Of a DNA stretch of 13,657 nt, positions 1-13,657 are shown in pieces. The notes under the pieces were generated by a model. The model searched no databases, had not been told where the DNA came from, and worked only from the letters and a program-made list of their open reading frames with translations. Both the position numbers and the translations under genes were made by a program. Origin of the DNA: Chthonomonas calidirosea (lineage in GTDB: Bacteria; Armatimonadota; Fimbriimonadia; Fimbriimonadales; Fimbriimonadaceae). Every line of letters starts with the position of its first letter. Position 1 is the stretch's first letter. The stretch lies in assembly GCA_945859975.1 (NCBI GenBank), contig CAMAPH010000058.1:1-13657 (forward strand). Reading direction: 5' to 3'.

Positions 1-96
1 AAAGCGCAGCAGTGCGAAGCCATTGGATTCGAGGATGACCGCACGGTGCTCATCTCGAACGAGCAGCGCGAAATCTTCCGGGTCCGCGTCGACTAG
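1..96 (+). CDS. 3' end of a hypothetical protein (5'-truncated by the window)
   Basis: Frame 1 is open from base 1 with GC-rich third positions: KAQQCEAIGFEDDRTVLISNEQREIFRVRVD*. The TAG at 94-96 overlaps the stop of the convergent gene (CTAG). Confidence 0.65.
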   Translation, partial: KAQQCEAIGFEDDRTVLISNEQREIFRVRVD

Positions 97-830
97 TTGA
101 CGTTGATCGATTCGATGGTCAGGGTTCCGCTGGCGTCGCGTGGGTTGACGTAGACGCCGGTTTGAACTTGCAGAACATCAATCCGGTCGGGCTTGCCGAA
201 GCCGAGATTCGTGTTGCCGCCGTTACTGGGGCGGGTGTGCTGCAGTTGGCTGAGCGGGAACTCGTATTGTCTGGTGACGGGATTGAGGGTGAACGGCGGC
301 GTGAGATAGCTGTCGGTGCCTTGCATGAGGCGGAGCCGGAATTTCGGCAACGTTCCGCGAGCCTTGACCACGACCTTGCTTAGGCCGCGGGTTTCGATCG
401 GCTCGGACGGATATCTAAGCGTCGCAAAGTACCGTTCTTCCTTGCCAAACTTGACGACTTGGAGTTCGGTGAATCCTTGGGCATCAACGGAGGTAGTCGC
501 CTCGGCCCCGGGGCTGGTCTCTAGCAACCAGGCGGTTTGCTTCGGAATCACGACGGGCGGCGCGGGTGCGGGAGGCTGCCCAATGAGCAGGATAGACGTT
601 AGGGCGAGGGCAATTGCGAACGCGATCAAGATCGCGATGACAATTTGGTTTTTGTTTCCAGCCTTTTTGGCGGCGATCTGCGTCCGCGCCTTTTGCAAGT
701 ATTCAACCGGAACCTCGATTTCGGCGAAGGCTGCTTCCTCGGCCTGCTTCTGCTGCGCCGCTTCGCGGTCTTGCTCGTACAGCTTTAGGGCCAGCTCCTC
801 CGCAGATTCTTCCTTCTTTGTTCGCAGCAT
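93..830 (-). CDS. Single-pass membrane protein with a C-terminal beta-sandwich (CIA30/CBM11-like) domain
   Basis: The ORF track starts at 971, which overlaps osmC. ATG at 830 (MLRTKKEESAEEL) is more plausible. It encodes a charged helical N-terminus, a TM segment IVIAILIAFAIALALTSILLIG, a Pro linker and a beta-rich domain (GLSKVVVKARG...FTLNPVTRQYEFPLSQL). The domain call is by resemblance only. Confidence 0.7.
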   Translation of the reverse strand: MLRTKKEESAEELALKLYEQDREAAQQKQAEEAAFAEIEVPVEYLQKARTQIAAKKAGNKNQIVIAILIAFAIALALTSILLIGQPPAPAPPVVIPKQTAWLLETSPGAEATTSVDAQGFTELQVVKFGKEERYFATLRYPSEPIETRGLSKVVVKARGTLPKFRLRLMQGTDSYLTPPFTLNPVTRQYEFPLSQLQHTRPSNGGNTNLGFGKPDRIDVLQVQTGVYVNPRDASGTLTIESINVN

Positions 831-867
831 AAGATTCAGTACGGAGGAGAGGCGAGCTAGGTTCGGA

Positions 868-1281
868 TCAGACCTGAACGGTGAGGTCGAGGGTGATGTC
901 GAGGTCGAGCACGCGGCTGATGGGGCAGCCTTCTTCGGCGGCCTTTGCGGCTTCTTGAATGAGGGCTTCATCGGCGCCGGTTGCGACCACGGTGCAGGTG
1001 AGCACGCTTCGGGTGAGGGTGAGCTCTTCCATGGTGACGGCGGCAGTGGTGGAGATGGACTCTGGGGTGATTCCGCGCTCGCCGAGTTGGGCGGAGAAGG
1101 CCATGCTGAAGCAGCCCGCGTGGGCGGCGGCGATCAGCTCTTCCGGATTCGTGCCGGGAGCGTCTTCAAATCGGGTTTTGAACGAGTAAGGCGTGCCGTT
1201 GAGAATGGTGGATGGGGACGTGAGCGTGCCGTGGCCTTCTTTTAGGTTGCCGTTCCAAACGGCCGATGCGGTTCTAATCAT
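868..1281 (-). CDS. osmC: OsmC family peroxiredoxin
   Basis: MIRTASAVWNGNLKEGHG, YSFKTRFE..PGTNPEELIAAAHAGCFSMA and GCPISR (both catalytic Cys). SD GGAGAG lies upstream of ATG 1281. Confidence 0.95.
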   Translation of the reverse strand: MIRTASAVWNGNLKEGHGTLTSPSTILNGTPYSFKTRFEDAPGTNPEELIAAAHAGCFSMAFSAQLGERGITPESISTTAAVTMEELTLTRSVLTCTVVATGADEALIQEAAKAAEEGCPISRVLDLDITLDLTVQV

Positions 1282-1343
1282 GTTGCTCTCCAAAACGCGT
1301 ATGCGCAACTCAGTCTTACCCGCCGTTTCTGTAGAATGACGGC

Positions 1344-2357
1344 ATGAGTCCCGAATTTCTGGCGAGAATCCCGAAGGTAGAGCTCCACGTACACCTCGAG
1401 GGGTCGATTCGGCCAGAAACCGTCTTACAACTCGCGGCGCGCAACGGCATCTCGCTCCCGGCCGACACGGTGGAAGGGCTCCAGGCGTGGTATGCCTTTC
1501 GAGATTTCCCCCACTTTGTCGAGGTGTACGTGGAGGTTTCGAAGTGCATTCGGACGGCCGATGATTTGGAGCTTCTCGCGCGTGAATTTTTGGAAGAACA
1601 AGCGCGGCAGAACGTGCTGTACTCGGAGTTCACCTACACGGTCTCGACCATCGAAAAGTATGCCGGGCTCGCCTGGAAAGATCAGTTTGCCGCGTTGCAG
1701 CGGGGACTGGCGTATGGCGCGGACCTTGGGACGGAGGCGCAGATCATCATCGACATCGTGCGTGGCGACTCGCTGGAGCGCGCGCAGGAGGTTTTGGGCT
1801 GGGTGAAGGAAGGTTTGGGGCACGGGGTTTGTGCCCTCGGGATTGCGGGAGAGGAACGACTTGGGACGGAACTGTATGCGCCCGTGTTTGAAGAAGCCCA
1901 AGCGCTCGGGATTCCGGTGGTCGCCCACGCCGGGGAAACGGTCGGGCCGGAGTCGATTTGGGAAGCGCTTCGGTTAGCCCACGCCAAGCGCATTGGGCAC
2001 GGGGTCCGGTGTGTGGAAGACCCCGAGTTGGTGAAGTACTTGGTTCAAAACCAAACTCCGCTCGAAGTTTGCCCGTCCAGCAACGTTTGCCTCGGCGTCT
2101 ATCCGTCGCTTGCCGAGCACCCGCTTCCGCGAATGCTGGACGAGGGAATGAACGTCACGATCAACTCCGACGACCCGCCGATGTTCGGCACGTCGCTCAC
2201 GGAGGAGTGGATCCGCGTTTGCCGCGAGTTTGAGCTGACGGAAGACATGGTGTTTAGCCTCATGCAAAACGCCGTCAACGCCGCCCTGCTGCCAGCGGAG
2301 CGTAAGGCGGAGTTGCGAACCGCGTTGCGTGAAGGCTTCGCGGAAGCGGCGGAGTAG
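1344..2357 (+). CDS. add: Adenosine/adenine deaminase
   Basis: PKVELHVHLEGS, AHAGE, RIGHG, EVCPSSN and NSDDPPMFG motifs; 337 aa. Confidence 0.93.
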   Translation: MSPEFLARIPKVELHVHLEGSIRPETVLQLAARNGISLPADTVEGLQAWYAFRDFPHFVEVYVEVSKCIRTADDLELLAREFLEEQARQNVLYSEFTYTVSTIEKYAGLAWKDQFAALQRGLAYGADLGTEAQIIIDIVRGDSLERAQEVLGWVKEGLGHGVCALGIAGEERLGTELYAPVFEEAQALGIPVVAHAGETVGPESIWEALRLAHAKRIGHGVRCVEDPELVKYLVQNQTPLEVCPSSNVCLGVYPSLAEHPLPRMLDEGMNVTINSDDPPMFGTSLTEEWIRVCREFELTEDMVFSLMQNAVNAALLPAERKAELRTALREGFAEAAE

Positions 2358-2391
2358 ACCTTTGATGCAGAAACTCTTGCAAAGTTACTGC

Positions 2392-3078
2392 TCAACGATG
2401 ATCGAGGAAGATGGCGGCGTATGCTGTGCTGGACTGTAGCAGGATCGTTGTGCCGTCTTTTCGTTCAAGCTGAACCGTTTTGAAGAGGGTGTTTGCGGGT
2501 GAGCCGGGTCGGGTTGCCCAGATCACCCATTTGCCGGTCGCAGCAGAGAGGTTCTGGACGTAAGGCGTTTCCAATTGCAACGTTACGTTCGTGGCAAACG
2601 GCACGCCATCGGACGGGCGTTGTCCCGGCGGTAATAGATAGAGATCAATGGGTCCACGGTAATCACGGAGGGGCTCGGGAATTAACTCACCGTATGCAAA
2701 AAGTTGAACCCCGGAAGCTGCTGGGTTTGGCAACTGACGTATTACATAGCGTCGAGTAAAAGGAACAATGGAAGCCGCGTAGTTTGCATCAAAGAGGATG
2801 AATGTTCCGAACCCTGCCGGTATCGTTTGGTCTGCAGGTGTCGTTTCACTCACTCCTTGATAACTGATGCTCAAATCGTCCGGTTGCAGTGGAAATGGCC
2901 CGAACGGTTCGCTGACGTCTACATCGTCAAACCGAACTCCATCCAGAAAAAATCTTCTGTCGTCGCCACTACCATTGACCACGAACAGATCTCGTCTGGG
3001 GAGCGAAGTATCAGTGCTGCCGCCGCAGCCAGCAATTAGCAACAGAGTTAACGCGGGAATGGAGTGAGCACTTTTCAT
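2392..3078 (-). CDS. Putative lipoprotein (DUF4397-like beta-rich)
   Basis: Signal peptide with lipobox LIAG-C followed by GGS. Contains VVNGS and PIDLYL motifs. Visibly lower GC than the flanks. Confidence 0.7.
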   Translation of the reverse strand: MKSAHSIPALTLLLIAGCGGSTDTSLPRRDLFVVNGSGDDRRFFLDGVRFDDVDVSEPFGPFPLQPDDLSISYQGVSETTPADQTIPAGFGTFILFDANYAASIVPFTRRYVIRQLPNPAASGVQLFAYGELIPEPLRDYRGPIDLYLLPPGQRPSDGVPFATNVTLQLETPYVQNLSAATGKWVIWATRPGSPANTLFKTVQLERKDGTTILLQSSTAYAAIFLDHR

Positions 3079-3263
3079 AAGGAAATTCCGATTACGGTTG
3101 TGTTGACAGGAACGTATGTTGGCAATGGCCCCGGCACAGAGCCATCCGTGGTGTAGATGCGAGCGCCGTCTGGAGATGAAGGAAGCACAATGCCCTTTGG
3201 CCGAAGATTTCCGGTGTAAAGAAGAGCGACCCCACTCGGGCAGTAGAGTCTTAGCCCCGCCAC
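3075..3263 (-). CDS. Small hypothetical protein or gene remnant
   Basis: 62-aa GTG-start ORF whose stop overlaps the lipoprotein start (ATGA). No recognised motif. Confidence 0.3.
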   Translation of the reverse strand: MAGLRLYCPSGVALLYTGNLRPKGIVLPSSPDGARIYTTDGSVPGPLPTYVPVNTTVIGISL

Positions 3264-3358
3264 CTTTACATTACGCCGATTGTTGAATCATGCGCGAAGA
3301 AAGTGATTCTCGGATGTTAAGGTTTCGTTCCCACTAAGTTCTGCGTGCGGCCCAGAAT

Positions 3359-5179
3359 CTAGGAAGTTGCCTTCGAATGCTCCGTCCACAGTTCTTCGAA
3401 CGTGCTCACAAACCGCTCGATCACCGCGAAGCCGCCTTGCCAGAACTCGGGGGAGTGGAGGTCTACGCCGACAATCGCCATGAGCTCATCAGGCGATTTT
3501 GAACCTCCGAGACGCAGGACTTCGAGGTACTTCGCTTCGAAGCTCGGGCCCTCTTGCTTTGCTTTCTCGTAAAGAGAGAGCACGAGCAGTTCGCCGAACG
3601 AGTACGCGTAAACGTAAAACGGAGCGAAGAAGAAGTGGCCGACGTAGCTCCACCACTGCTTGTGCTGATCGCCCATGGTAACGCTGCTACCGAACATCGC
3701 CTGGAGCTCGGCTTGCCAGATTTCCCCGAATTGCTCGGATGACAGTTCGCCGGTTTCGCGTCGCGCTCGGTGGCACTTTTGCTCGAACGAGAACATCGCG
3801 GCTTGGCGGAAAACGGTAGCGAAAATCCCCTCGGCCTTATCGGCATAGAGGGCCAACTTATCCTCTAAGTTCGCCTTCGCAACCAACTTCTCAAAGACAA
3901 GCATTTCGCCAAAGGTGCTGGCGAGCTCGGCGAGGGGGAGGGTGCCGTGGAAGTTGAAATAGCTTTGCCCTCGGCTGAGCGAAGCGTGGACGCCATGGCC
4001 AAGCTCGTGGGCCAGGGTCATCACGTCATCCATCCGGTTCATGTAGCTTTGGAACACGAACGGGTGGGTGTCGGGGGTGACGTAGGAGCAGAACGCACCG
4101 CCCTGCTTGCCCTTGCGAGGCTCGGCATCGATCCAGTTTTTGTCGAAGAACTCAGCAGCGCGGTCCTTGAGGGTCGGGCTGAACTGGCCAAAGGCATCGA
4201 GGACGATCTCCTTTGCTTCGGGCCATTCCACCGGCGCTTCGGATTCAAACAACGGAGCGTAGCGGTCAACGTGGGTGAGTTCTTCGAGCCCAAGTGCGTC
4301 GCGCTTGACGAGGTAGTACCGCTCAACGAGGCCGTAATTTTCGCGGCAGAGCCGCATGACGAGGTTGACGGTTTCGGAGTCGAGCTCGTTGGAAAGGTGC
4401 CGACTAGTCTCGGGCTCTTCCATCTTTCGCAGCCGGTCGTCGACGGCCTTGTCTTGGAGCAGGTTGTTGTAGATAAACGTGATAGTCCGGTTCAGCTCAT
4501 GAAGTCCGGCGGTGAGGGATTCCGCAGCGGCGAGTCGCTTGCCGCGATCCGCATCGCGAAGGAGCGTTAAGACTTCCTGCTCGGTCGCCGATTTGGGCTC
4601 TTCGCCGGGCAGCTGAAGGGTGAAAACGTGGTTGGTGGTGACTTCTTCAAACAGACGCACCCACGCGCGGGAGCCGGTATTTGCCGTTTCTTCGAGGATG
4701 ACTTCTTCCGCTTCGGAAAGACGGTAGGGCTGGTAGCGTCGGCTGGCTTCGATAAAGTGGCGGTAAGGCGCAACCTCGGGATCACTGAGCAAAGGATCGA
4801 TGATCGCGGAATCGACCTTCTGAAGTTCGAGTTCGGCGAAGAGGGTGAGGACGCTCAGCTCGGTGGCGAGTTCGCGCTGCTTCTGCATGAACGCGCCAAT
4901 CTGGGCGTTTGCCGAATCGGTGCTGAACAGTAGGTTGGCGTAGGAAAGCGGCTTTGCGATTTCGTTGGAGATCGCTTCAAGCTCGCGGATGGATCCGGCG
5001 AGGGTTGCGGCGGTGAGGCTCGGGTCGTTGATCTTGCCGCGATACCGTTCGGCGTACGCTTCGCACTTGGTCCGGGCTTCGGTCCAGGTGGCTTGAATAG
5101 CAGGGTCTTCTAGGCCAGAAAAAAGCACCGATAGGTCCCAACGAACCTGTGGAAGCGGCAATGACGCAGCGTCGCTCAT
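3359..5179 (-). CDS. pepF: M3B family oligoendopeptidase F
   Basis: N-terminal WDLS, WID..PRKGKQGGAFC, zinc motif TLAHELGHGVH, LAELASTFGE and HFF.APFYVYAYSFG; 606 aa. Confidence 0.95.
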   Translation of the reverse strand: MSDAASLPLPQVRWDLSVLFSGLEDPAIQATWTEARTKCEAYAERYRGKINDPSLTAATLAGSIRELEAISNEIAKPLSYANLLFSTDSANAQIGAFMQKQRELATELSVLTLFAELELQKVDSAIIDPLLSDPEVAPYRHFIEASRRYQPYRLSEAEEVILEETANTGSRAWVRLFEEVTTNHVFTLQLPGEEPKSATEQEVLTLLRDADRGKRLAAAESLTAGLHELNRTITFIYNNLLQDKAVDDRLRKMEEPETSRHLSNELDSETVNLVMRLCRENYGLVERYYLVKRDALGLEELTHVDRYAPLFESEAPVEWPEAKEIVLDAFGQFSPTLKDRAAEFFDKNWIDAEPRKGKQGGAFCSYVTPDTHPFVFQSYMNRMDDVMTLAHELGHGVHASLSRGQSYFNFHGTLPLAELASTFGEMLVFEKLVAKANLEDKLALYADKAEGIFATVFRQAAMFSFEQKCHRARRETGELSSEQFGEIWQAELQAMFGSSVTMGDQHKQWWSYVGHFFFAPFYVYAYSFGELLVLSLYEKAKQEGPSFEAKYLEVLRLGGSKSPDELMAIVGVDLHSPEFWQGGFAVIERFVSTFEELWTEHSKATS

Positions 5180-5208
5180 TCCTGTATTAGACCCCAGCGA
5201 TTGGGCCG

Positions 5209-5826
5209 CTAAATGATGGACCCAGGGTGGCGATTGGAATAGTAGTCCACCGCGTCCATGGCATCCTTCAGCCCCAGACCCGTGATCTTCCGCAGGTAGG
5301 CGATGGTGTCGACTTTAGGCGCGGGCGTGTACTGAAGTTTGTAGGTGCTCACGAAATCGTCGATGACGGCTTCGACGTTGTGACTTACGTTGAGCTGATC
5401 AATCTTGGCGCGGGTTTTTCGCCAGTCTTGGAAGGCGGCTTCGACGGCAGGACCATTGCCCAAGGCGATTGCGGCGTGGCTCACAATGCCGATTCCCCAG
5501 CCAAACAGCGGAAACAGGAACCAAAAATCTCCCTTGCGAAGGCTGAGGAAGGCGAGAAAAAGGTTAACCAGTACGAACGGCAAGAGGTGCTGAAGGAAAC
5601 CGTTTCGTCGCTCGGCATCGAAGAGGGCGCGTTCTTCTTTCGAGCTCTTTGTTTGGGCGTACTCCAGCTCGGCCGCTTCTAAATCGGCGGGAGAAATCCC
5701 GAGCTCATCGGCCATGGCCAGCAAGCGCTGGCGATTGTCGGCTCCGGTGGCGGTGGGCATGCGGCGGGAGGCGATCTTTAGAATCTGCTCAAGATCATCT
5801 TCACCATATTGCTCAAGGCGTGACAC
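5209..5826 (-). CDS. 2TM-domain membrane protein with C-terminal ribosomal L7/L12-CTD-like motif
   Basis: YGEDDLEQIL..A and LLAMADELGISPADLEAAE N-terminus. 2TM signature HLLPFVLVNLFL...WFLFPLFGWGIGIVSHA. C-terminal KVDTIAYLRKITGLGLKDAMDAVD. Confidence 0.8.
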   Translation of the reverse strand: MSRLEQYGEDDLEQILKIASRRMPTATGADNRQRLLAMADELGISPADLEAAELEYAQTKSSKEERALFDAERRNGFLQHLLPFVLVNLFLAFLSLRKGDFWFLFPLFGWGIGIVSHAAIALGNGPAVEAAFQDWRKTRAKIDQLNVSHNVEAVIDDFVSTYKLQYTPAPKVDTIAYLRKITGLGLKDAMDAVDYYSNRHPGSII

Positions 5827-5872
5827 GGAGACATTTTAGCAAGGTCTGGTTCCGAGTCCAAGATTTTTGGGT

Positions 5873-6811
5873 CTATCGCGTCTCGGATAGGCTCAAATGG
5901 CGCCCGTGTCCTGGTCGATATCCGACTTCCCGATGAAAGGCGCGCGAGAACGCGGATTCGGATTCGTAGCCAACCTCGGCGGCGACGGCGCTCACGGTGA
6001 GGTTGCGCACTTGTAGGCGCTGAACGGCAACGTGCATTCGCCAACTGGTGAGGTAGCTCATCGGCGCTTGCCCGACCGTCTTTTTGAATCGGTCCGCGAA
6101 GGTGGAACGAGAAAGCCCCGCGAGCTTCGCCATGTTCACAAGCGTCCAATCGGCGCCAGGGTCGGCATGGATTCTCGCGACCACGCGGCCAATTTCCGGA
6201 TCGCCCAAGAACCCAGCCCATCCGCCATCGGATAGGGCATAGCTGCGGATGGCGTGCATGATGACGGCATCGAGAAGGCGGTTGACGATCGGCCGGCTGC
6301 CCGGGCGGATGCTTTCGGTCTCCTCCGTGATTCGCGCCAGGAGTTCGCGAATGGGTTCAGCGCCGGAATCTCGGCGGACGATGATGGCATCGGGCAAGCT
6401 GCGGATCAGCGGGTGGCTCTGCAGGTTCCGAACCTGGACCAGCCCGGTCAAATACTGGTGAGTCGGTACGGTGTTGCCCACTTGATACACGAGGCCCGAA
6501 CGGCACAGTTGATTGCTCTTGGCGAGTAATTCGGAGAACGGGATGGCGTCGATTCCCGGCTTCGTTCTGACGGAGGTGAAGATTGGCGCGAGGCAGAGGG
6601 CAAAGTCCCCTTCTTCTAGGACATGGAACCGGCCGGCGGCTTCTAGCAGCACCGAGCCCTGAAAGACAAACATGATCTTCGCCCGGTCGACTTTGGGGTC
6701 GAAGGCGATGCCGAGAGGTTCCGAAGTGATCACTCGACCGACGACTTCACTATCGATTTTGAGCGAGGTCATCAGTTGGTCGAGCAGAAACAAGTCCGGA
6801 TGATCGGCCAT
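5873..6811 (-). CDS. AraC family transcriptional regulator (Cupin_6 N-terminus, RclR-like architecture)
   Basis: C-terminal WTLVNMAKLAGLSRSTFADRFKKTVGQAPMSYLTSWRM...VAAEVGYESESAFSRAFHREVG. ATG 6811 is preferred over 6847. Confidence 0.93.
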   Translation of the reverse strand: MADHPDLFLLDQLMTSLKIDSEVVGRVITSEPLGIAFDPKVDRAKIMFVFQGSVLLEAAGRFHVLEEGDFALCLAPIFTSVRTKPGIDAIPFSELLAKSNQLCRSGLVYQVGNTVPTHQYLTGLVQVRNLQSHPLIRSLPDAIIVRRDSGAEPIRELLARITEETESIRPGSRPIVNRLLDAVIMHAIRSYALSDGGWAGFLGDPEIGRVVARIHADPGADWTLVNMAKLAGLSRSTFADRFKKTVGQAPMSYLTSWRMHVAVQRLQVRNLTVSAVAAEVGYESESAFSRAFHREVGYRPGHGRHLSLSETR

Positions 6812-6867
6812 GTTGTTCGGTTTATCCGACGTAGATCGTCCGGTCATGTGGGTTGATAATACTTGAG

Positions 6868-7743
6868 ATGAGTATTGTTGTCACCACCCCAACCGGCCAA
6901 ATTGGCAGTCAAGTTGTTCGCGGTTTGATCCGCGCGGGCGAGCGTCCGTCGGTCATCGTTCGCGATCCGTCCCGCCTCGCGGCCGACGTTTTGCCATACG
7001 TCCAAGTGTTCCAAGGTGCTTCGGATGACGTGGAAGTTGTCGCTCGGGCGATTGAGGGAGCTTCCTCTATCTTCTGGTTGACGCCGCCGAACTACGGCTC
7101 GCAAGACCCATTTGCAGACTACGCTCGGTTCGCCCAGACGCTCGTTGATGCGGCGAAACGGACGACTGCGCCGCACATCGTGCACTTGAGTTCGGACGGC
7201 GCCCAGTTCCGTCACGGCCTCGGGCTGATTGATGCCGTTGCGGCTTCGGAGCTTACTCTCGACACTCTAGGAGGAAACGTGCTCCACCTGCGCCCGGGCT
7301 TCTTCTATGAGAACTTCCTTTGGCAAGTCGAGCCGATTCGGAGCGGCCACATCTTCCAGGCCGTTCCGGGTGAAACGGTCACGAACTTTGTCGCAACGTC
7401 GGACATCGCAGAAGTTGCGGTGCTTCGATTGCTGGCGCGGAATTGGACTGGAACCGAGACGCAGTTGATTCACGGGCCGGAGCGGCTTTCGTTCCTTCAG
7501 GCAACGGCGGCTATTTCTTCAGGGATTGGTAAGTCGGTTCAGTTCGTCGAAGCTTCCGACGAAGATACGAAGGCGGGCTTCATGGCAACGGGTGGCAGCG
7601 AAGCCGTGGCCGAGCCTTACGTGCAGATGTTCCGCGCCATGCGCGGCGCGCCATCGATTCCCGACCCCCGGAATCCGTTTTCGACCGGGAAAACGACGCT
7701 TGCGGACTGGGCGTTCCGGGTTCTGCGGCCGATTGTTGGCTAG
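6868..7743 (+). CDS. NmrA-like / atypical SDR NAD(P)H-binding protein
   Basis: MSIVVTTPTGQIGSQVV Rossmann start, LRPGFFYEN, VATSDIAEVA and GPERLS motifs. Divergent from the AraC gene. Confidence 0.9.
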   Translation: MSIVVTTPTGQIGSQVVRGLIRAGERPSVIVRDPSRLAADVLPYVQVFQGASDDVEVVARAIEGASSIFWLTPPNYGSQDPFADYARFAQTLVDAAKRTTAPHIVHLSSDGAQFRHGLGLIDAVAASELTLDTLGGNVLHLRPGFFYENFLWQVEPIRSGHIFQAVPGETVTNFVATSDIAEVAVLRLLARNWTGTETQLIHGPERLSFLQATAAISSGIGKSVQFVEASDEDTKAGFMATGGSEAVAEPYVQMFRAMRGAPSIPDPRNPFSTGKTTLADWAFRVLRPIVG

Positions 7744-7750
7744 GATTCTG

Positions 7751-8377
7751 CTATAGCTTTTCTGGGCTTCGGTTGCGAAGCCCAGAGCGAATCCACTGCC
7801 CAATTTCGTCGGGATGGCGCATGCGGAACTGGGCGTAAAGTGTTTGAACCGTGATTCTAGGCAGACCCGTGGTCTCGCTGATTTCAGCGCAAGGGTCGGC
7901 TCGAAGATTTCCTCTGTTACGTGCGAACCAGTCGCTGAACAAAGCATCCGTTTGAAAAATATCTGCAACGAGCCAAAGTCGGAAGTCGGGCAGCTTCCAA
8001 CTTTCGAACTTTGATTGAGCCTGAAACTCCTTGTTTAGCAATGGCCAGACGCTCAACGCTGCGGCAACAAGAAGGAACTCCAAGAGCGCGAACTCTTTCC
8101 GTATGGCCCAAGAAATCCCGGCAATGGTTAGCAAAATTCCGGTGATGACGAAAGCTGCAATCTTGAGTGACTGGCGCTCTTCTCGGAATCGAGCGGCCAG
8201 GAGTTTTTGCATTTCCTCGGAGTCAAATTCCCGCTGCAAATCGACGCATCGATCGTAGTCGTGACCGAGAAGTACTGCGGTATGGATGGCGTAGCTGGGA
8301 CCGGCTTGTAAATCCTCGGCGGTCGGCTCGATCAGCCGATTCAGTTCCTTCCGGGAAAAGTCGTCCACGTGCGCCAC
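7751..8377 (-). CDS. Two-TM membrane protein, diverged paralog of 5209-5826
   Basis: Two hydrophobic helices, similar length (208 vs 205 aa) and a C-terminal TGL-x14-RHP motif shared with 5209-5826. Confidence 0.7.
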   Translation of the reverse strand: MAHVDDFSRKELNRLIEPTAEDLQAGPSYAIHTAVLLGHDYDRCVDLQREFDSEEMQKLLAARFREERQSLKIAAFVITGILLTIAGISWAIRKEFALLEFLLVAAALSVWPLLNKEFQAQSKFESWKLPDFRLWLVADIFQTDALFSDWFARNRGNLRADPCAEISETTGLPRITVQTLYAQFRMRHPDEIGQWIRSGLRNRSPEKL

Positions 8378-8409
8378 ACCGAATTCTAGCTCTGAACTAA
8401 ACTGAATTC

Positions 8410-9273
8410 ATGCGTTTTCAGGTGGCGTGTGCGCAGTTTGCACCCAAAAAGGCGGAGGTTTCGGCGAACCTCGATACGATCTCCGAGATCATTCTCCAAT
8501 GCCAGGACGAAAACGTTGACCTGGTGCTGTTCCCAGAAACGGCCACGAGCGGATACTTCCTTGAGGGTGGCGTCATCGAGGCGTCCCTCTCGGCCGAGGC
8601 CCTGGCCCGAGGGCTGCGAGAAAGGCTACAAGGCAAGCTGACCCGGCAAATCGACGTCGCGCTTGGCTTCTATGAGGCGGCGGAAGGGATTCTCTACAAC
8701 AGCGCCTGCTACCTTGAGATGACCAATTACGGAACCCGCCCGGTGGCGGTTTACCGAAAGTTCTTCTTGCCGACCTACGGCGTTTTTGATGAGGAACGCT
8801 TCGTCTCGCGAGGGCGTGACTTGTCGGTTTTTGAAACGCGATTTGGCAAAATGGCGATCCTCATTTGCGAGGACATTTGGCACTCGATCATGCCGACCCT
8901 TTGTGCGGTGAACGGCGCGCAGGTGATCTTGGTCCCGGCGGCGAGCCCGGCCCGAGGTTTCCGAGGCGAGCGGATTGAGAACCACGAGCGGTACGAGCGG
9001 CTCTTCCGAGGCGTGGCCGAAGAGCATTCGGTTTACGTCGTCAGCGCGCAACTTGTCGGGTTCGAGGGCGGGAAAGGATTCATAGGTGGCTCGATGGTCA
9101 TTGGCCCGTTTGGCGAGACGATTGGTGCCGCGCCGGTGGCCGATCCGCACCTTTTGATCGCGGATTTGGACCTCGATCAGGTGACGATCGCTCGGGCACA
9201 ATCGCCATTGGTGAGCGATTTGCAGGGCGCGTGGGAAGATGTGCGCCGCTTAGTAACCCGCGCCGCTCAGTGA
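8410..9273 (+). CDS. Carbon-nitrogen hydrolase (nitrilase superfamily)
   Basis: Glu-Lys-Cys triad in LVLFPE, YRKFFLPTYGVFDEERF and LICEDIWH. Confidence 0.92.
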   Translation: MRFQVACAQFAPKKAEVSANLDTISEIILQCQDENVDLVLFPETATSGYFLEGGVIEASLSAEALARGLRERLQGKLTRQIDVALGFYEAAEGILYNSACYLEMTNYGTRPVAVYRKFFLPTYGVFDEERFVSRGRDLSVFETRFGKMAILICEDIWHSIMPTLCAVNGAQVILVPAASPARGFRGERIENHERYERLFRGVAEEHSVYVVSAQLVGFEGGKGFIGGSMVIGPFGETIGAAPVADPHLLIADLDLDQVTIARAQSPLVSDLQGAWEDVRRLVTRAAQ

Positions 9274-9309
9274 CTTGCCATCCGGATTTGAATCGGTTAT
9301 AGTAGACGC

Positions 9310-9702
9310 ATGTCTATAAGACTTGACATGATTGGGATCGTCGTTCATGACATCGAGCGATCCGTTGCTTTTTACCGAGCGTTGGGATTAGAGATTCCGG
9401 ACGGCGATGGCAGTCCGTACCACGAAGTGACCTTAGACGGCGGAGTTCGGCTGAGTTGGAACCACATCGACATGGTCAAGCAGATCGATCCTGATTGGAC
9501 GGCGCCGACCGGATACCGAATGGGTCTGGCGTTCTTGTGCGATTCGGTTGCCGATGTTGACGCGCGGTTTGCGAGCGTGATCGCGGCGGGCTTTGAAGCG
9601 CACAAGCAACCTTGGGACGCGTTTTGGGGTCAGCGGTACGCGCAGGTTTTGGATCCAGACGGGAACATCGTCGACCTGTTCGCGCCATTGCCAGCGGAGT
9701 AG
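9310..9702 (+). CDS. VOC (glyoxalase/bleomycin resistance) family protein
   Basis: IGIVVHDIERSVAFYRALG and PWDAFWGQRYAQVLDPDGNIVDLF. Confidence 0.92.
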   Translation: MSIRLDMIGIVVHDIERSVAFYRALGLEIPDGDGSPYHEVTLDGGVRLSWNHIDMVKQIDPDWTAPTGYRMGLAFLCDSVADVDARFASVIAAGFEAHKQPWDAFWGQRYAQVLDPDGNIVDLFAPLPAE

Positions 9703-9705
9703 GCG

Positions 9706-9746
9706 CAAAAAAGCCCGGCAAAGATTGATCCTTGCCGGGCTTTTGG
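9706..9746. terminator. Bidirectional intrinsic terminator
   Basis: AAAAAAGCCCGGCAA...TTGCCGGGCTTTT between the convergent VOC and rplA genes, with a T-tract on both strands. Confidence 0.88.
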
Positions 9747-9754
9747 ATTTCGAA

Positions 9755-10483
9755 TTAGGCGGCGAGCTTGCCGGCGAGGGTTGGGTCCATTGGGACGCCT
9801 GGGCCCATCGTGCTGCTCATCGTGAGCGTTCGGATGTAGCGACCCTTTGCGGACGAAGGCTTAGCCTTGATGAGCGCACCGAGGGCGGCCTTGAAGTTCT
9901 CAAGAAGCTGCTCGTCGGTGAAGTTCACCTTTCCTATGGCCATGTGGACAACGCCGGCTTTGTCGGCTCGGTATTCAACACGGGTAGCGGCTTTGATTTC
10001 GCGAACGGCGGCAGCGATGTTGTTCGTAACCGTTCCGTTTCGCTTGTTCGGCGTTCGGGGGCCGAGGATTCGTCCGACCTTACCGATCTGCGGAGCCATT
10101 TCTTCCGTTGCGAGAAGGACATCGAAGTCGCGGAATCCGCCCTGGATCTTAGCGATCAGGTCTTCGTCTCCAACGGTGTCGGCGCCTGCGTCTTCCGCAG
10201 CCTTGGCGAGGTCTCCCTTAGCGAGGACGGCAACCTTTCGGACCTTTCCGGTTCCGTGTGGCAAGTTGGTGATACCGCGCACGTTCTGGTCGCTCTTCTT
10301 CGGGTCAATTCCGAGGACGACGCTGATGTCGATGGTTTCGACGAACTTGGCGGTTGCGGTCTGCTTTACCAGGCCGAGGGCAGCGGTGAAATCGAGCTGC
10401 GTATCTTTGTCGACCTTTTCGGCGACGGCGAGGTAACGAGGCGAATGAGGGTTTGTGCGAATGTTCTGCTTTGCTTTTGGCAT
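9755..10483 (-). CDS. rplA: 50S ribosomal protein L1
   Basis: AKFVETIDISVVLGIDPKKSDQNVRG..LPHGTGK, GRILGPR, EYRADKAGVVH..IGK and KGRYI...SSTMGPG. Confidence 0.98.
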   Translation of the reverse strand: MPKAKQNIRTNPHSPRYLAVAEKVDKDTQLDFTAALGLVKQTATAKFVETIDISVVLGIDPKKSDQNVRGITNLPHGTGKVRKVAVLAKGDLAKAAEDAGADTVGDEDLIAKIQGGFRDFDVLLATEEMAPQIGKVGRILGPRTPNKRNGTVTNNIAAAVREIKAATRVEYRADKAGVVHMAIGKVNFTDEQLLENFKAALGALIKAKPSSAKGRYIRTLTMSSTMGPGVPMDPTLAGKLAA

Positions 10484-10487
10484 TCTA

Positions 10488-10529
10488 AAATCGGTTCCAA
10501 CGTCCTGCCTCTGGCAAGACTCCCGACCT
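10488..10529 (-). promoter_or_regulatory. Putative L1-binding autoregulatory mRNA leader (23S rRNA L1-site mimic)
   Basis: The minus strand reads AGGUCGG-GA-GUCUUGCC-AGA-GGCAGGAC-GUUGGAA-CCGAUUU: two helices around an asymmetric internal loop containing GGGAG, ending 4 nt before the ATG. Confidence 0.75.
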
Positions 10530-10540
10530 CCGAACCTGAA

Positions 10541-10546
10541 ATGATA
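10541..10546 (-). promoter_or_regulatory. Candidate -10 element for rplA
   Basis: TATCAT on the minus strand ~11 nt upstream of the leader hairpin. Confidence 0.4.
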
Positions 10547-10601
10547 CCTTCTCGCGTGGTGAACGGGGTTCTCTTGCCGGCACTCCTTCAGAAAAAGAAC
10601 G

Positions 10602-10629
10602 GTCTTTGACCCCTCGATGGTCGAAGACT
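10602..10629. repeat. Relic REP end: two inverted terminal segments fused into one hairpin
   Basis: GTCTTTGACCCCTC-GAT-GGTCGAAGACT. Both arms match the repeat terminus AGTCTTCGACCCC. Confidence 0.65.
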
Positions 10630-10701
10630 AGAAGTAACGATTCGATAGAAATGAGCGGTCGAGGCATCAGGGGCACTTCTGCGATTACCCATGGCGTGTC
10701 G

Positions 10702-10787
10702 AGTCTTCGAGCCCTCCGGGGTCGGTTCCGATGCGAGCGTTCCAGGCATTTTCAATGCCTGGCTACCTTCTTGATCCCTCCGGGATC
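10702..10787 (-). repeat. Tripartite GTAG REP-like repeat, copy 1 (subtype alpha)
   Basis: AGTCTTCGAGCCCTCCGGGGTCG-N17-CCAGGCATTTTCAATGCCTGG-CTAC-CTTCTTGATCCCTCCGGGATC. Strand is given by the GTAG reading. Confidence 0.92.
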
Positions 10788-10907
10788 TGCTGCCGATTCG
10801 GCTAGGTATTGAGAGCATTTTTGCACCACAACTTGAGAGCGAAGGTTGTTCAGAACAAATAGATGGTTTTAGCGTGCGGCATCCCAATGCCTTCAGTCGC
10901 AACAATA

Positions 10908-11002
10908 AGTCTTCGACCCCTCCGGGGTCGGCGGTCACACTGCCCTATCCAGGCATTTTCAATGCCTGACTACCATCTTTAATCCCTCCGGGATACTCGA
11001 AA
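10908..11002 (-). repeat. Tripartite GTAG REP-like repeat, copy 2 (subtype beta)
   Basis: AGTCTTCGACCCCTCCGGGGTCG-N18-CCAGGCATTTTCAATGCCTGA-CTAC-CATCTTTAATCCCTCCGGGAT-ACTCGAAA. Confidence 0.92.
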
Positions 11003-11114
11003 TTTGGGCCGGTAGTGCAGGATGCGCACCGGAAAGGAGGGCGGTCCAATGAACCCCCCCTCTGTTCAGTTCTCACTAACGAGAAAGCCGGACTTCTGTA
11101 CCACGAACGGATGC

Positions 11115-11212
11115 ACACCCTCTCCCCGATCCCGGAGGGATCAAGAAGGTAGCCAGGCATTGAAAATGCCTGGTAGAGCGATTTCGCTTTCGACCCAGAC
11201 GGGTCGAAGACT
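11115..11212 (+). repeat. Tripartite GTAG REP-like repeat, copy 3 (subtype alpha)
   Basis: ACACCCTCTCCCC-GATCCCGGAGGGATCAAGAAG-GTAG-CCAGGCATTGAAAATGCCTGG-N17-CGACCCAGACGGGTCG-AAGACT. Confidence 0.92.
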
Positions 11213-11238
11213 CCAGAATCAATTTGTAATTCAGCTTG

Positions 11239-11274
11239 AAGTTTGGCGTTCGTCCGGAACTGAACGCCAAACTT
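11239..11274. promoter_or_regulatory. Perfect 13-bp inverted repeat upstream of the transposase
   Basis: AAGTTTGGCGTTC-N10-GAACGCCAAACTT, ending 26 nt before ATG 11301. Function unknown. Confidence 0.55.
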
Positions 11275-11300
11275 TGCATACTTTTCACGGGTACTGCTTC

Positions 11301-11741
11301 ATGCCAACAACGCATTCGAGCCTTCACGTTCACGTCATCTTTGCAACGAAAAATAGGGCACCGCTGTTAACGCCTGAACTCATTGAAGATGTCCACGGCT
11401 ATATCGGCGGCACCTTAAGGTCTTTAGATTGCAAGCCAGTAGCGGTTGGTGGGGTTGAAGATCACGTTCATCTTTTGCTTGGCATGAAGCCGGTGCATCG
11501 TCTTGCTGATGTGATACGCGAAACGAAAAAGACCTCATCCATTTGGATGAATGAGCGAACTCGAGGCTTTGCTTGGCAGCAGGGCTACAGTGCGTTTGGT
11601 GTTAGTGCGCACGAAATTCCGATGATGGTCAGATACATCAGTCACCAACAAGAGCACCATCGGAAAAAGACGCTCGTTGAGGAGTTGTCGGATGTGTATC
11701 GATTGGCTGGCATTCCCTTTGAGCCTGGTGATTTCGAATGA
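11301..11741 (+). CDS. tnpA: Y1 HUH transposase (IS200/IS605 TnpA / REP-associated tyrosine transposase-like)
   Basis: HVIFATKNR, GGVEDHVHLL (HUH), KKTSSIW, FAWQQGYSAF and the catalytic YISHQ (YxxxQ) followed by EHH. 146 aa, intact, no tnpB downstream. Confidence 0.93.
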   Translation: MPTTHSSLHVHVIFATKNRAPLLTPELIEDVHGYIGGTLRSLDCKPVAVGGVEDHVHLLLGMKPVHRLADVIRETKKTSSIWMNERTRGFAWQQGYSAFGVSAHEIPMMVRYISHQQEHHRKKTLVEELSDVYRLAGIPFEPGDFE

Positions 11742-11768
11742 CACTTGAGATTCACGATGTCGGCTGTA

Positions 11769-11868
11769 AGTCTTCGACCCCTCCGGGGTCGGGAGCGACG
11801 GGACCTCATCCAGGCATTTTCAATGCCTGGCTACCTTCTTGATCCCTCCGGGATCGGGGAAAGGGTGT
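11769..11868 (-). repeat. Tripartite GTAG REP-like repeat, copy 4 (subtype alpha)
   Basis: AGTCTTCGACCCCTCCGGGGTCG-N18-CCAGGCATTTTCAATGCCTGG-CTAC-CTTCTTGATCCCTCCGGGATC-GGGGAAAGGGTGT. Inverted partner of copy 3. Confidence 0.92.
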
Positions 11869-12057
11869 TCGCCAATCGGGTTCGTTACGTTGAATCGGGA
11901 CTAGCGAACCATAACTTGTATCGGGCCACATTCGATTTCAGCGACTACTTGCTGAACCGTCGATGTGGCAGGCTTGCCAGAATTGGACATGGGCCCGACT
12001 AGTGCGCTCAGTTCATTCCGGTTCGAAAAGAAGATCGTTAATTTCTGCGTATTTCAA

Positions 12058-12103
12058 AGCTTGAAACCACATCCAAAGCCTGCTTTCGAGTAACCCGAAG
12101 CGG
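12058..12103 (+). repeat. Degenerate direct duplicate of the copy-5 flank and first hairpin
   Basis: GAAACCACATCCAAAGCCTGCTTTCGAGTAACCCGAAG (12063) vs GAAACTACATCCAAAGCCTACTTTTGAGTATCCCGAAG (12176); period 113 bp. Confidence 0.8.
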
Positions 12104-12196
12104 CTCAGGATGGGAGTTCACTTCCCGAGTCAAGGTCGCATTGAACTGGAACCTTAGCCGCAATGCATTCGAGCTGAAACTACATCCAAAGCCTAC

Positions 12197-12292
12197 TTTT
12201 GAGTATCCCGAAGGGATTAAAGAAGGTAGCCAGGCATTGAAAATGCCTGGAAGCGCTGCCGTTGCTCCGACCCCGGGAGGGGTCGAAGACTT
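12197..12292 (+). repeat. Tripartite GTAG REP-like repeat, copy 5 (subtype beta)
   Basis: TTTTGAGT-ATCCCGAAGGGATTAAAGAAG-GTAG-CCAGGCATTGAAAATGCCTGG-N17-CGACCCCGGGAGGGGTCG-AAGACT. Confidence 0.92.
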
Positions 12293-12348
12293 CTGGCCGC
12301 AGGCGGTAGAGAACTGGAACGCGGAGAAACTCTCGTCTAACAAAGACC

Positions 12349-12900
12349 CTACGCCTCCGGCTGGAAGGCTTCGTCGAGGGGAGCGGGGCTGATGTGGTCT
12401 AGGTAGTTGCTGATCGTTTTTAGGGCGACGCCGAGGAGGATTTCCATCAGGTTGGCCGGCGTGTAGCCGGCGGCGAGGAAGGAATCTCGGGTTTCCGTCG
12501 AGAGGTAGCCGCGTTCTCGGACGATTTCCCGCACGGTGTTGATCAGGGCCTGATGCTTTTCGTTTGGAACCGGTTCGCCAGCGCGGACAGCGTTCACGAT
12601 TGCCGGGTCGACCTTCATCATGCTCTTCAAGATCGTGCTGTGCGCCGCGGTGCAATAACCGCACTCGTTCTCAAGGCTCACGGCGAGCAGGATGACCTGT
12701 CGCTCGACCGGGGAGAAGCCGGATTGGTTGTAGGCTTCGTCGAGAGCCAAGTAGCCGGTGATGACCGAAGGTGAGTTGGCAAAAGTTGCGAACAAGTTCG
12801 GGATGAAGCCGAGGCCGCCTTTGACTGCTTTCAGGGAATCAAGGCTCTTCTCGGGAGCGGTTTCAAGAGTGAGTGGTTGAAATAGGGTGGTTGACTGCAT
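12349..12900 (-). CDS. Carboxymuconolactone decarboxylase / AhpD-like peroxidase-related protein
   Basis: GFIPNLFATFANSP and ERQVILLAVSLENECGYCTAAH (CxxCxxxH), TISNY. SD GAGG lies upstream of ATG 12900. Confidence 0.92.
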   Translation of the reverse strand: MQSTTLFQPLTLETAPEKSLDSLKAVKGGLGFIPNLFATFANSPSVITGYLALDEAYNQSGFSPVERQVILLAVSLENECGYCTAAHSTILKSMMKVDPAIVNAVRAGEPVPNEKHQALINTVREIVRERGYLSTETRDSFLAAGYTPANLMEILLGVALKTISNYLDHISPAPLDEAFQPEA

Positions 12901-12938
12901 CTTCGTTTTCCTCTTCCTGTCGAGTGACAACGATTACA

Positions 12939-12952
12939 GTACTGATCGGTAC
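12939..12952. promoter_or_regulatory. Palindromic operator, TetR-family-like
   Basis: GTACTGATCGGTAC, a 14-bp near-perfect palindrome 38 bp upstream of the CMD start codon. Confidence 0.6.
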
Positions 12953-12986
12953 AAATGAGTTCCCACTAATTTCAGGAAACCCAGAC

Positions 12987-13019
12987 AAAAAAGCGCCCGA
13001 CCCAAGTTGGGTCGGGCGC
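12987..13019 (-). terminator. Intrinsic terminator of the PEP-CTERM gene
   Basis: Minus strand GCGCCCGACCCA-ACT-TGGGTCGGGCGC-TTTTTT. Confidence 0.92.
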
Positions 13020-13033
13020 AGAGGCTGGAGAGC

Positions 13034-13657
13034 TTAGTTCGAGCGTCGTCGGCGGATGAACGCCGCGACTCCTGCGCCGAGGGCGAGGAAGGTGGCTGGC
13101 TCTGGTACTGGTGCGGATGGAAGGTTTCCGTTGAACTTGTACTGGTTGCCGAAGTGCAGCTCAGCCGAATTTCGGTTGACCCACGACTTTGCGATCATCG
13201 TTCCCTGGATGTTCTGGGACTGGTTGACCGTAGCGTTCACGGCGAGCATTGAACCGTCGAAGTTGCGGTTCGCAACGGTGATGTTCGTGGCGTCGACGAA
13301 GTTCCAAACAAGCTTGTTCTTGTTTGCGTAGTTGACCTGCCAACCCCAGTTGACCGTGGTTCCGGTGACGTTGATGACCACGGTCTCGTTGCCGTTTCCA
13401 CCGCTGAGGTTCAGCGTGCTGAGGCTGCTGAGCTGGCTAGCGTTGACGTTGTAAACCTTCAGGTTTCCGTTGCCCGTGTTCGAGCTCAGGTTAACGTTGA
13501 TGTTGTTCGGATCGGAAATGTTGATTGCCTGACCGGTCAGCGACGCGAGGTAGCTGGACTGGTTGGTGCTGTAGTTGCGCTGCTGGTTGAAGATCGCCGC
13601 CGAAGCTCCGACCCCACCCGGGTTGAGCTGGCCGTTCTGGACGTCAAGGGTTCCCGT
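13034..13657 (-). CDS. PEP-CTERM sorting-domain surface protein, choice-of-anchor A-like (5'-truncated by the window)
   Basis: The frame is open to the window edge (TGTLDVQNGQLN...VYNVNASQL...TVVINVTG...LVWNFVDAT...GSMLA..A...IQGTMIA...ELH) and ends VPEPATFLALGAGVAAFIRRRRSN. Confidence 0.9.
   Translation of the reverse strand, partial: TGTLDVQNGQLNPGGVGASAAIFNQQRNYSTNQSSYLASLTGQAINISDPNNINVNLSSNTGNGNLKVYNVNASQLSSLSTLNLSGGNGNETVVINVTGTTVNWGWQVNYANKNKLVWNFVDATNITVANRNFDGSMLAVNATVNQSQNIQGTMIAKSWVNRNSAELHFGNQYKFNGNLPSAPVPEPATFLALGAGVAAFIRRRRSN

Follow-up and report, generated by a model that had tools for sequence, protein, structure and literature searches.

The persistence of a transposase together with miniature repeats has its textbook example in repetitive extragenic palindromes (REPs) and REP-associated tyrosine transposases (RAYTs): the enzymes are class 2 Y1 transposases, the repeats are short single hairpins, and the hosts are mainly Proteobacteria. 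TnpA-REP, like the IS608 and ISDra2 TnpA, binds a hairpin on single-stranded DNA (ssDNA), and the bases at the 5′ foot of that hairpin locate the cleavage site. Insertion sequences (ISs) of the IS200/IS605 family have both subterminal end hairpins on one strand and no terminal inverted repeats (TIRs). Here we analyse a locus of Chthonomonas calidirosea in which a lone IS200-like transposase gene, tnpA, is enclosed by inverted copies of a long repeat composed of three hairpins. It lies in a stretch of 13,657 nucleotides (nt), called the window below (GenBank assembly GCA_945859975.1, contig CAMAPH010000058.1, positions 1 to 13,657). Taken as a whole, partnership and mechanism together, the locus is probably REPtron-like, with an IS200-like enzyme as its base.

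The REPtron has been described by Quentin 2018 (PMC6006769). In the portion of that paper available to us, subclass 1.2 of TnpA-Y1 is characterised by the motifs DH[IV]H, WQ and YIxNQxEHH, a length of ~148 amino acids (aa) and a C-terminal domain of ~30 aa; its members, mostly from Cyanobacteria and Bacteroidetes, are given there as low in copy number, without typical IS200 end structures and with no REP. The same portion presents TIRYT as subclass 2.1, with ~238 aa, a C-terminal helix-turn-helix and the motif GGGGWSAS in the TIRs. Finally, the accessible part of Weinberg 2010 (PMC2864571) rates the Rfam family Acido-Lenti-1 (RF01687) a probable RNA, found in Acidobacteria and Lentisphaerae.

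A single tnpA between inverted three-hairpin units

The open reading frame (ORF) of tnpA (11301-11741, + strand) is free of stop codons and encodes a Y1/HUH transposase of 146 aa. Y1_Tnp is its only Pfam domain (E 4e-22), and NCBIfam assigns it to transpos_IS200, the IS200/IS605 transposase equivalog, at 60.9 bits (cut-off 55) with no other match. The protein carries the motifs DHVH, WQ and YIxxQxEHH, the last one reading YISHQQEHH, followed by a tail of ~30 aa after the catalytic tyrosine. HVH, W92-Q93, Y112, Q116 and H120 are invariant in 46 of 46 aligned homologs. In motifs, length and tail, TnpA fits the signature of subclass 1.2, an assignment made by motifs alone.

Both the protein and its family profile match the ISDra2, IS608 and archaeal IS200 transposases of solved structure (profile E 5e-15 to 7e-10); E. 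coli TnpA-REP (PDB 4ER8) was not found by sequence or by family profile, even at E ≤ 10. The best fold matches of an AlphaFold (AF2) model (pLDDT 88.2) are ISDra2 and IS608 TnpA bound to DNA hairpins (Foldseek E 4e-9), with 4ER8 at rank 30 (E 1.8e-5). A preliminary description of this DNA had judged the protein closer to IS200 TnpA than to the E. coli RAYT; NCBIfam, profile, sequence and fold all agree with it.

Five units surround the gene, each 85-88 nt long and scoring 60-76 bits with a covariance model (n = 5). Folded as ssDNA, every unit forms three hairpins, named A, B and C (z −2.65 to −6.2), with the exception of hairpin C in unit 1. In five of five units, GTAG immediately precedes, on the 5′ side, the 9-bp stem of hairpin B. 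With up to one mismatch, the 25-nt core made of GTAG and hairpin B occurs five times in the window and not once in 200 shuffles.

Units 3 and 4 are mutually inverted around tnpA, with hairpin C of each toward the gene. Unit 3 (11127-11211, + strand, 60.1 bits, z −6.18) lies directly upstream, on the coding strand; unit 4 (11770-11856, − strand, 76.1 bits, z −3.69) begins 28 nt past the stop codon. Across this inverted pair, 64 nt (11115-11178 and 11805-11868) are 95% complementary. Further out, unit 2 (10909-10996, − strand, 70.6 bits, z −4.79), with one core mismatch (GTAGT), is the left half of the upstream doublet, and unit 5 (12203-12290, + strand, 72.7 bits, z −4.78) is the right half of the downstream one, so that tnpA is flanked by two inside-out doublets, 2+3 and 4+5. 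Unit 1 (10703-10788, − strand, 69.3 bits, z −2.65) is solo, with an exact core and a degraded hairpin C. The order along the window is (−)(−)(+) tnpA (−)(+), or, at the level of hairpins, [C-B-A] ... [C-B-A] 130 nt [A-B-C] tnpA [C-B-A] 346 nt [A-B-C]. The REPtron-like layout announced in the preliminary description is borne out, the units being inverted around a solo, single-copy tnpA. Its remark that the repeat exceeds classical REPs in length and structure holds as well.

The assembly as a whole (G000; 3.12 Mb, 101 contigs, 95.8% complete) holds a single Y1_Tnp gene, according to tblastn and a Pfam search. TnpB had been noted as missing, and an OrfB_IS605 search of the whole assembly gave no match. 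For comparison we used the complete sister genome G014 and three genomes of the same genus, G003, G004 and G024, the last of which is also complete. Unit 1 is ~97% and unit 5 ~95% conserved in the sister genome; unit 2 is without counterpart there.

Two decayed copies accompany the units. At 10604-10629 (+ strand), a remnant of a unit 3′ end consists of a degenerate hairpin C, with 72-77% complementarity to that hairpin in units 1, 2 and 4, followed by AAGACT; the remnant is absent from the sister genome. At 12062-12117 (+ strand), a unit 5′ flank and hairpin A persist as a direct repeat, 80% identical to 12175-12229, and also as an inverted pair.

A terminator-like hairpin of 16 pairs (11237-11276, + strand) folds 25 nt before the tnpA start codon. 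In IS200, a comparable hairpin blocks read-through or limits translation, and by analogy this one may be a read-through terminator or a translation block. It carries a T-rich tail, and a contig of sequencing run X3 has a 12-nt insertion behind position 11272, at its 3′ edge.

All of this is contained in a 1.86-kb non-coding stretch that separates the start of the ribosomal protein L1 gene (rplA, 9755-10483, − strand) from the end of a carboxymuconolactone-decarboxylase (CMD)-family gene (12349-12930, − strand). tnpA is the sole gene recognised in it: none of the six remaining ORFs (71-208 aa) has a match in a Pfam search. On its upstream side (10484-10600), the L1 gene is directly preceded by the repeat cluster and not by an adjacent gene, and the 115 nt upstream of the L1 start are ~90-95% conserved in the sister genome.

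The gene-repeat partnership across the protein family

A scan with one genome per species returned 501 relatives of TnpA. The best 80 of these, 38-51% identical, were used; they come from Planctomycetota, Verrucomicrobiota, Acidobacteriota, Armatimonadota and others. Adding 9 loci of the window's relatives and 20 paralogs found in the three same-genus genomes gives 109 homolog loci, 3 of which had flanks too short for comparison. When the 300 nt upstream and downstream were compared with each other by BLAST, 95 of the 106 loci with usable flanks gave a significant inverted match, of ≥40 nt in 71 and of ≥75 nt in 43. A strict scan for GTAG and a perfect hairpin found candidates in 18 of the 80 loci; it misses TTAG or CAG tags and imperfect stems, and was therefore replaced by the flank BLAST and a covariance model.

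The consensus of 37 aligned units comprises a small hairpin A (CCC-GNA-GGG type), a linker of 7-9 nt, NTAG-CC, a longer hairpin B closing with GG, a variable stretch of ~20 nt, a small hairpin C and (A/C)AGA. The (N)TAG tag sits at the 5′ foot of hairpin B, whose stem is lineage-specific between CC and GG. The preliminary description had singled out GTAG as the tag. This holds for all five units of the window, and is not universal in the family, where GTAG occurs in 13 of the 37 aligned units, next to TTAG (11), ATAG (5), CTAG (1), NCAG (6) and AAAG (1); NTAG covers 30 of 37.

The alignment of these units (MAFFT) was not fitted to any structure, the structure being supplied by hand afterwards. 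In it, 86.3% of the cells pair; with the partners slid, 30-52% do. Compensatory changes are found in 17 of 19 pairs, all three stems covary, and 0 of 500 shuffles attain the observed values. Changes on both sides concern 120 cells, one-sided changes of the G-U type 10. RNAalifold recovered hairpin B alone from the same alignment, and missed hairpins A and C because they are register-shifted in it.

The covariance model, R1, was seeded partly from the loci it searched; it detects 252 units in 100 homolog loci, with at least one unit in 97 of them. Of the 96 loci with ≥200 nt to either side of the gene, 60 show a + strand unit closest upstream and a − strand unit closest downstream. The median spacing is 23 nt before the start codon and 9 nt after the stop codon. 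Each of the 20 paralogs has stem sequences of its own in both flanking units.

Gene and repeat also co-occur across whole genomes. The 18 genomes, among 40 relatives, that have a strong tnpA match each contain two or more units; of the 22 that lack such a match, 16 have no unit. In six genomes with weak tnpA matches alone (E 1e-7 to 1e-3) there are 0 units; in five of the six these matches lie in longer frames, of 248-277 aa. Unit counts per relative are lower bounds, with up to 108 candidates scored in each genome. Altogether, as far as sequence comparison goes, the partnership of gene and repeat belongs to the protein family as a whole.

Mobility, probable allele replacement and rival explanations

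In both G000 and G014, tnpA is a single copy between rplA and the CMD-family gene. The orthologous locus of G014 carries tnpA and four units in an unchanged arrangement, and the neighbouring proteins are 100% (L1) and 96% (CMD) identical. Units are ~95-97% conserved, about like the flanks; the spacers between them are unalignable. The two tnpA alleles (11301-11741 in the window, L082:1498-1938 in the sister) are 73% identical. They are under purifying selection, with proportions of nonsynonymous and synonymous differences of 0.17 (pN) and 0.75 (pS), the latter meaning saturated synonymous sites; synonymous divergence (dS) of the flanks is 0.18-0.37. The G014 allele is best explained by cassette replacement, probably through recombination in the conserved units. 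We considered hypermutation of tnpA in situ and rejected it: in contigs of three other lake-water runs the G000 allele is 2.7-7.1% diverged, close to its flanks (5-7%), and the gene is therefore not hypermutating.

Traces of movement are found in G024. Two [unit-tnpA-unit] copies (L115/L116, ~650 bp) are 98% identical there, and their homology begins and stops precisely at the outer feet of the two flanking A hairpins, with no target duplication visible. For 6 tnpA genes, G024 has at least 95 dispersed units: solos, and inside-out doublets that recur, spacer included, at several loci. One element (L134) is tnpA-less and reads [A-B-C] 152-nt [C-B-A]; no tnpA remnants were seen in the solos, doublets and tnpA-less element inspected. 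Compared with one another, units lose their similarity just outside hairpin A on one side and behind CAGA(A) on the other. Given the duplicates, the tnpA-less units and these limits of homology, unit-bounded DNA has, judging by its sequence boundaries, moved or been copied in this family. Members of the genus have 0 to 20 matches to TnpA, full paralogs as well as fragments; within three relatives, paralogs are mostly 45-67% identical, with 1 of 57 pairs at ≥98%. In a doublet that recurs across several G024 loci (L132:314-482 and L136), the spacer holds another GTAG-tagged hairpin, and composite elements may combine several tagged hairpin types.

G000 has 15 core matches at ≤4 mismatches, and the covariance model recovers the identical 15 places. 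The 10 outside the window keep hairpin A, linker, GTAG and hairpin B, the latter fully compensated in two of them, and all 10 have a different, longer third hairpin. They are parts of a larger, mosaic repeat in which a second hairpin tagged with GTAG is also present. In G014, such composite modules form tandem arrays with a period of ~281 nt at five loci, three of which share unique flanks with G000 contigs. The system is quiet in G000, with 15 units, one gene and a locus as in the sister genome. The preliminary description held that many dispersed intergenic repeats served by a single tnpA would support its model; the gene is indeed single, and the 10 outside units fit the part on repeats only weakly.

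The composite repeat lies at C8:55870-56270, C14:660-810 and 3060-3270, C66:4110-5350 and C10:68460-68730 in G000, and at L096, L098, L100 and L102 in G014; array length differs between the two genomes at orthologous loci. The ~281-nt repeat is C/A-rich on one strand, with runs of CCGAAC-like words and a second GTAG hairpin whose stem begins CTCACCCG. Rfam returned nothing at E ≤ 1 for three loci with these arrays. The dispersed cores of G014, 12 in number (C1, 0.82-1.86 Mb, with dnaA at ~0), are all on the + strand, in five loci, two of them beyond the chromosome midpoint. A lagging-strand bias as in IS608 was dropped as too weak, with five G014 loci and G024 units in both orientations. Logan-contig joints from runs X1-X4 (10787>12220, 10998>11065, 11001>12265 and 11863>12197) were not used as evidence either. 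Five of their eight endpoints are ≤7 nt from a hairpin-A edge of a unit, but each joint is one contig with 30-91 letters on the shorter side and 85% likeness, from repeat-rich metagenomes, and may represent other loci or fold-back assembly artefacts.

The sequences show the anatomy of the locus, its association across the family with covarying, lineage-specific stems, and duplicated segments that end at unit edges. The mechanism that we propose goes beyond this: like the TnpA of IS608 and ISDra2 and like TnpA-REP of E. coli, the protein would act as a dimer that recognises the tagged hairpin B on ssDNA. Cutting and rejoining would take place at the edges of a unit, immediately on the 5′ side of hairpin A and directly behind the (A/C)AGA next to hairpin C, putative cleavage sites that we infer from homology boundaries alone. 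Hairpins A and C would position or mark these edges, and the inverted symmetry would let the reaction run on either strand. Single units, doublets or the whole [unit-tnpA-unit] cassette could then be moved or copied without target duplications.

Should the locus instead be read as a plain selfish IS, the 730 bp from 11127 to 11856 would be an autonomous IS200-like element with structured TIRs of ~88 nt, its extra units being solo ends or miniature inverted-repeat transposable elements, and nothing would be domesticated. We hold this to be unlikely; it differs from the REPtron-like explanation in the label, selfish or domesticated, and not in mechanism. The two 98%-identical G024 copies bounded exactly by units speak in its favour, as do the L134 element and the 0 to 20 matches in the genus, including the G023 fragments described below, which are what one expects of gutted copies. 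The saturated G014 allele and the flank-like divergence in lake water also point to replacement by transfer or recombination. A single tnpA at an orthologous locus in G000 and G014 is harder to reconcile with it; 1 of 57 paralog pairs at ≥98% identity means no recent bursts, and the many dispersed inside-out doublets ([C-B-A] spacer [A-B-C]) are not simple deletion derivatives of a tnpA element. That the locus is a decaying relic, left by an IS that has ceased all activity and whose gene and repeats now drift, is very improbable: the frame is intact, all catalytic residues are present, pN/pS against the sister allele is low, the units are conserved between G000 and G014 while spacers are unalignable, and the G000 allele is kept in the three further lake-water runs. 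The two unit remnants, the degraded hairpin C of unit 1 and a small family mostly at loci orthologous with the sister genome would suit such a relic.

The units could also be RNA elements, namely Acido-Lenti-1 small RNAs (sRNAs), terminators or regulatory structures, in or near which the transposase gene merely tends to insert. The Acido-Lenti-1 model corresponds to the opposite-strand reading of hairpin B, CUA, linker and hairpin A. Its best match in the window, in unit 5 (12204-12250, − strand), scores 25.5 bits, below the gathering score of 37. Gene-adjacent units at 3 of 20 tested homolog loci, from Thermoanaerobaculia and Pyrinomonadaceae, attain 37-46.6 bits, and at L068 two matches bracket the gene in inverted orientation. 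With these scores, the family's published status as a probable RNA and the covarying stems, the RNA reading has its arguments; an IS inserting into REPs is also known, as ISPpu9 in the available part of PMC8450116. We nonetheless give it hardly any credence. Units occur on both strands and in inverted pairs whose distance from the gene is nearly constant, every paralog is accompanied by a matched pair peculiar to it, and in G024 the units lie inside the duplicated segment, not in the target, with the downstream unit of L115/L116 overlapping the stop codon. The rarity of one-sided G-U-type changes fits pairing needed on both strands or in DNA. A literature search found no link of Acido-Lenti-1 to a transposase.

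Several observations weigh against the REPtron-like explanation itself. An inverted flank match is lacking at 11 of 106 loci, the canonical inverted layout is missing at 36 of 96 (other combinations, or one side empty), 3 of 100 loci are unitless, and the R1 counts lean toward the model through its partial circularity. Covariation cannot tell DNA from RNA hairpins. Units without a tnpA match occur in G011 (at least 16), G021 (at least 15) and G012 (at least 8), and in G001, G019 and G040 (at least 1 each). G021 is 99% complete and its units are high-scoring; they may be orphan repeats. G023, in turn, combines 20 tnpA-like matches with a count of at least 4 units; the matches are mostly fragments (residues 1-40 or 91-142), several with stop codons, and may be gutted miniature copies. 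The G000 family is small and atypical, 10 of its 15 units having the different third hairpin inside the composite repeat. The units outside the window are mostly at loci orthologous between G000 and G014, which therefore give no sign of recent transposition here. Finally, as inverted ends are unlike those of IS200/IS605, the known Y1 mechanism is not transferable unchanged.

The preliminary description had also called the system domesticated, and had named the same flanks around many tnpA copies at unrelated sites as the mark of an ordinary IS. On the latter point G000 has a single copy and G024 one 98% duplicate. This duplicate, the 0-20 matches in the genus and the divergent sister allele at the same locus mean that the label is not earned; the system may be domesticated or may be a low-activity selfish element.

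Comparison with described systems

What appears to be new here is a REPtron-like partnership in the lineage of subclass 1.2 enzymes, recorded as REP-less in the portion of PMC6006769 available to us. We lean, by a small measure, toward a broader claim: subclass 1.2 enzymes would supply the protein to a third REP/RAYT-like partnership that spans phyla, with the composite three-hairpin module as its DNA half. This would be a second enzyme lineage with such a partnership, in Planctomycetota, Verrucomicrobiota, Acidobacteriota and others. Acido-Lenti-1 would then be part of a DNA module and not an RNA gene, which suggests re-annotating this Rfam "sRNA" family as part of a transposon-type DNA repeat. 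The conserved units would serve as recombination points that swap tnpA cassettes between lineages, and such swaps would explain near-identical flanks and units around saturated tnpA alleles in G000 and G014. A conserved tag with lineage-specific stems offers natural specificity variants for studies of how Y1 enzymes read hairpins. Stationary single copies, a duplicated cassette and allele replacement, side by side, make the family useful for the continuum from selfish IS to domesticated RAYT.

The closest enzymes by sequence and fold are those of IS200/IS605 (IS608, ISDra2, IS200), which also lend the protein its NCBIfam name. Common to both are DNA hairpins at the ends and, to judge from the G024 duplicate, no visible target duplication. 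At our locus, in contrast, the ends are inverted copies of each other, tnpB is missing, the genome has one copy instead of several near-identical ones, and extra gene-less units and doublets are present. With subclass 1.2, as far as PMC6006769 could be consulted, the protein shares motifs, length, tail, low copy number and low identity among copies within a genome. It differs in that the lineage described here is abundant in Planctomycetota, Verrucomicrobiota, Acidobacteriota and Armatimonadota, and regularly flanked by structured repeats.

TIRtrons resemble the locus in other respects. In the accessible text of Di Nocera 2013 (PMC3733652), a Y1 gene is bracketed by long TIRs, some of them double palindromes, and the moderate repeat families occur as dimers or clusters. 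The same work also has GTAG repeats of Planctomycetes and Verrucomicrobia. Unlike TIRYT, TnpA has 146 aa with Y1_Tnp as its only Pfam domain, and the unit consensus is without GGGGWSAS. Acido-Lenti-1, as a probable sRNA family without a transposase link, covers two of the three hairpins.

Differences from the REPtron and REP-RAYT systems, represented by E. coli K-12 TnpA-REP (PDB 4ER8) with its REP and bacterial interspersed mosaic elements and by Pseudomonas REPIN-RAYT, lie in both partners. The REPtron enzyme belongs to class 2, with YxxxNP, whereas TnpA here has YxxxQxxHH and is not class 2; a three-hairpin module of ~88 nt replaces the single hairpin of 20-40 nt, in 15 copies as opposed to hundreds of REPs. 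What they have in common is the organisation. A Y1/HUH gene, solo and low in copy number, stands between two palindromic repeats of its own kind that are inverted to each other. The repeat has a hairpin with a GC foot and, on the 5′ side of that foot, a tag of the GTAG type (a 5′ GT[AG]G tetranucleotide in the REPtron). Inverted doublets also lie away from the gene, and every paralog comes with a separate repeat type.

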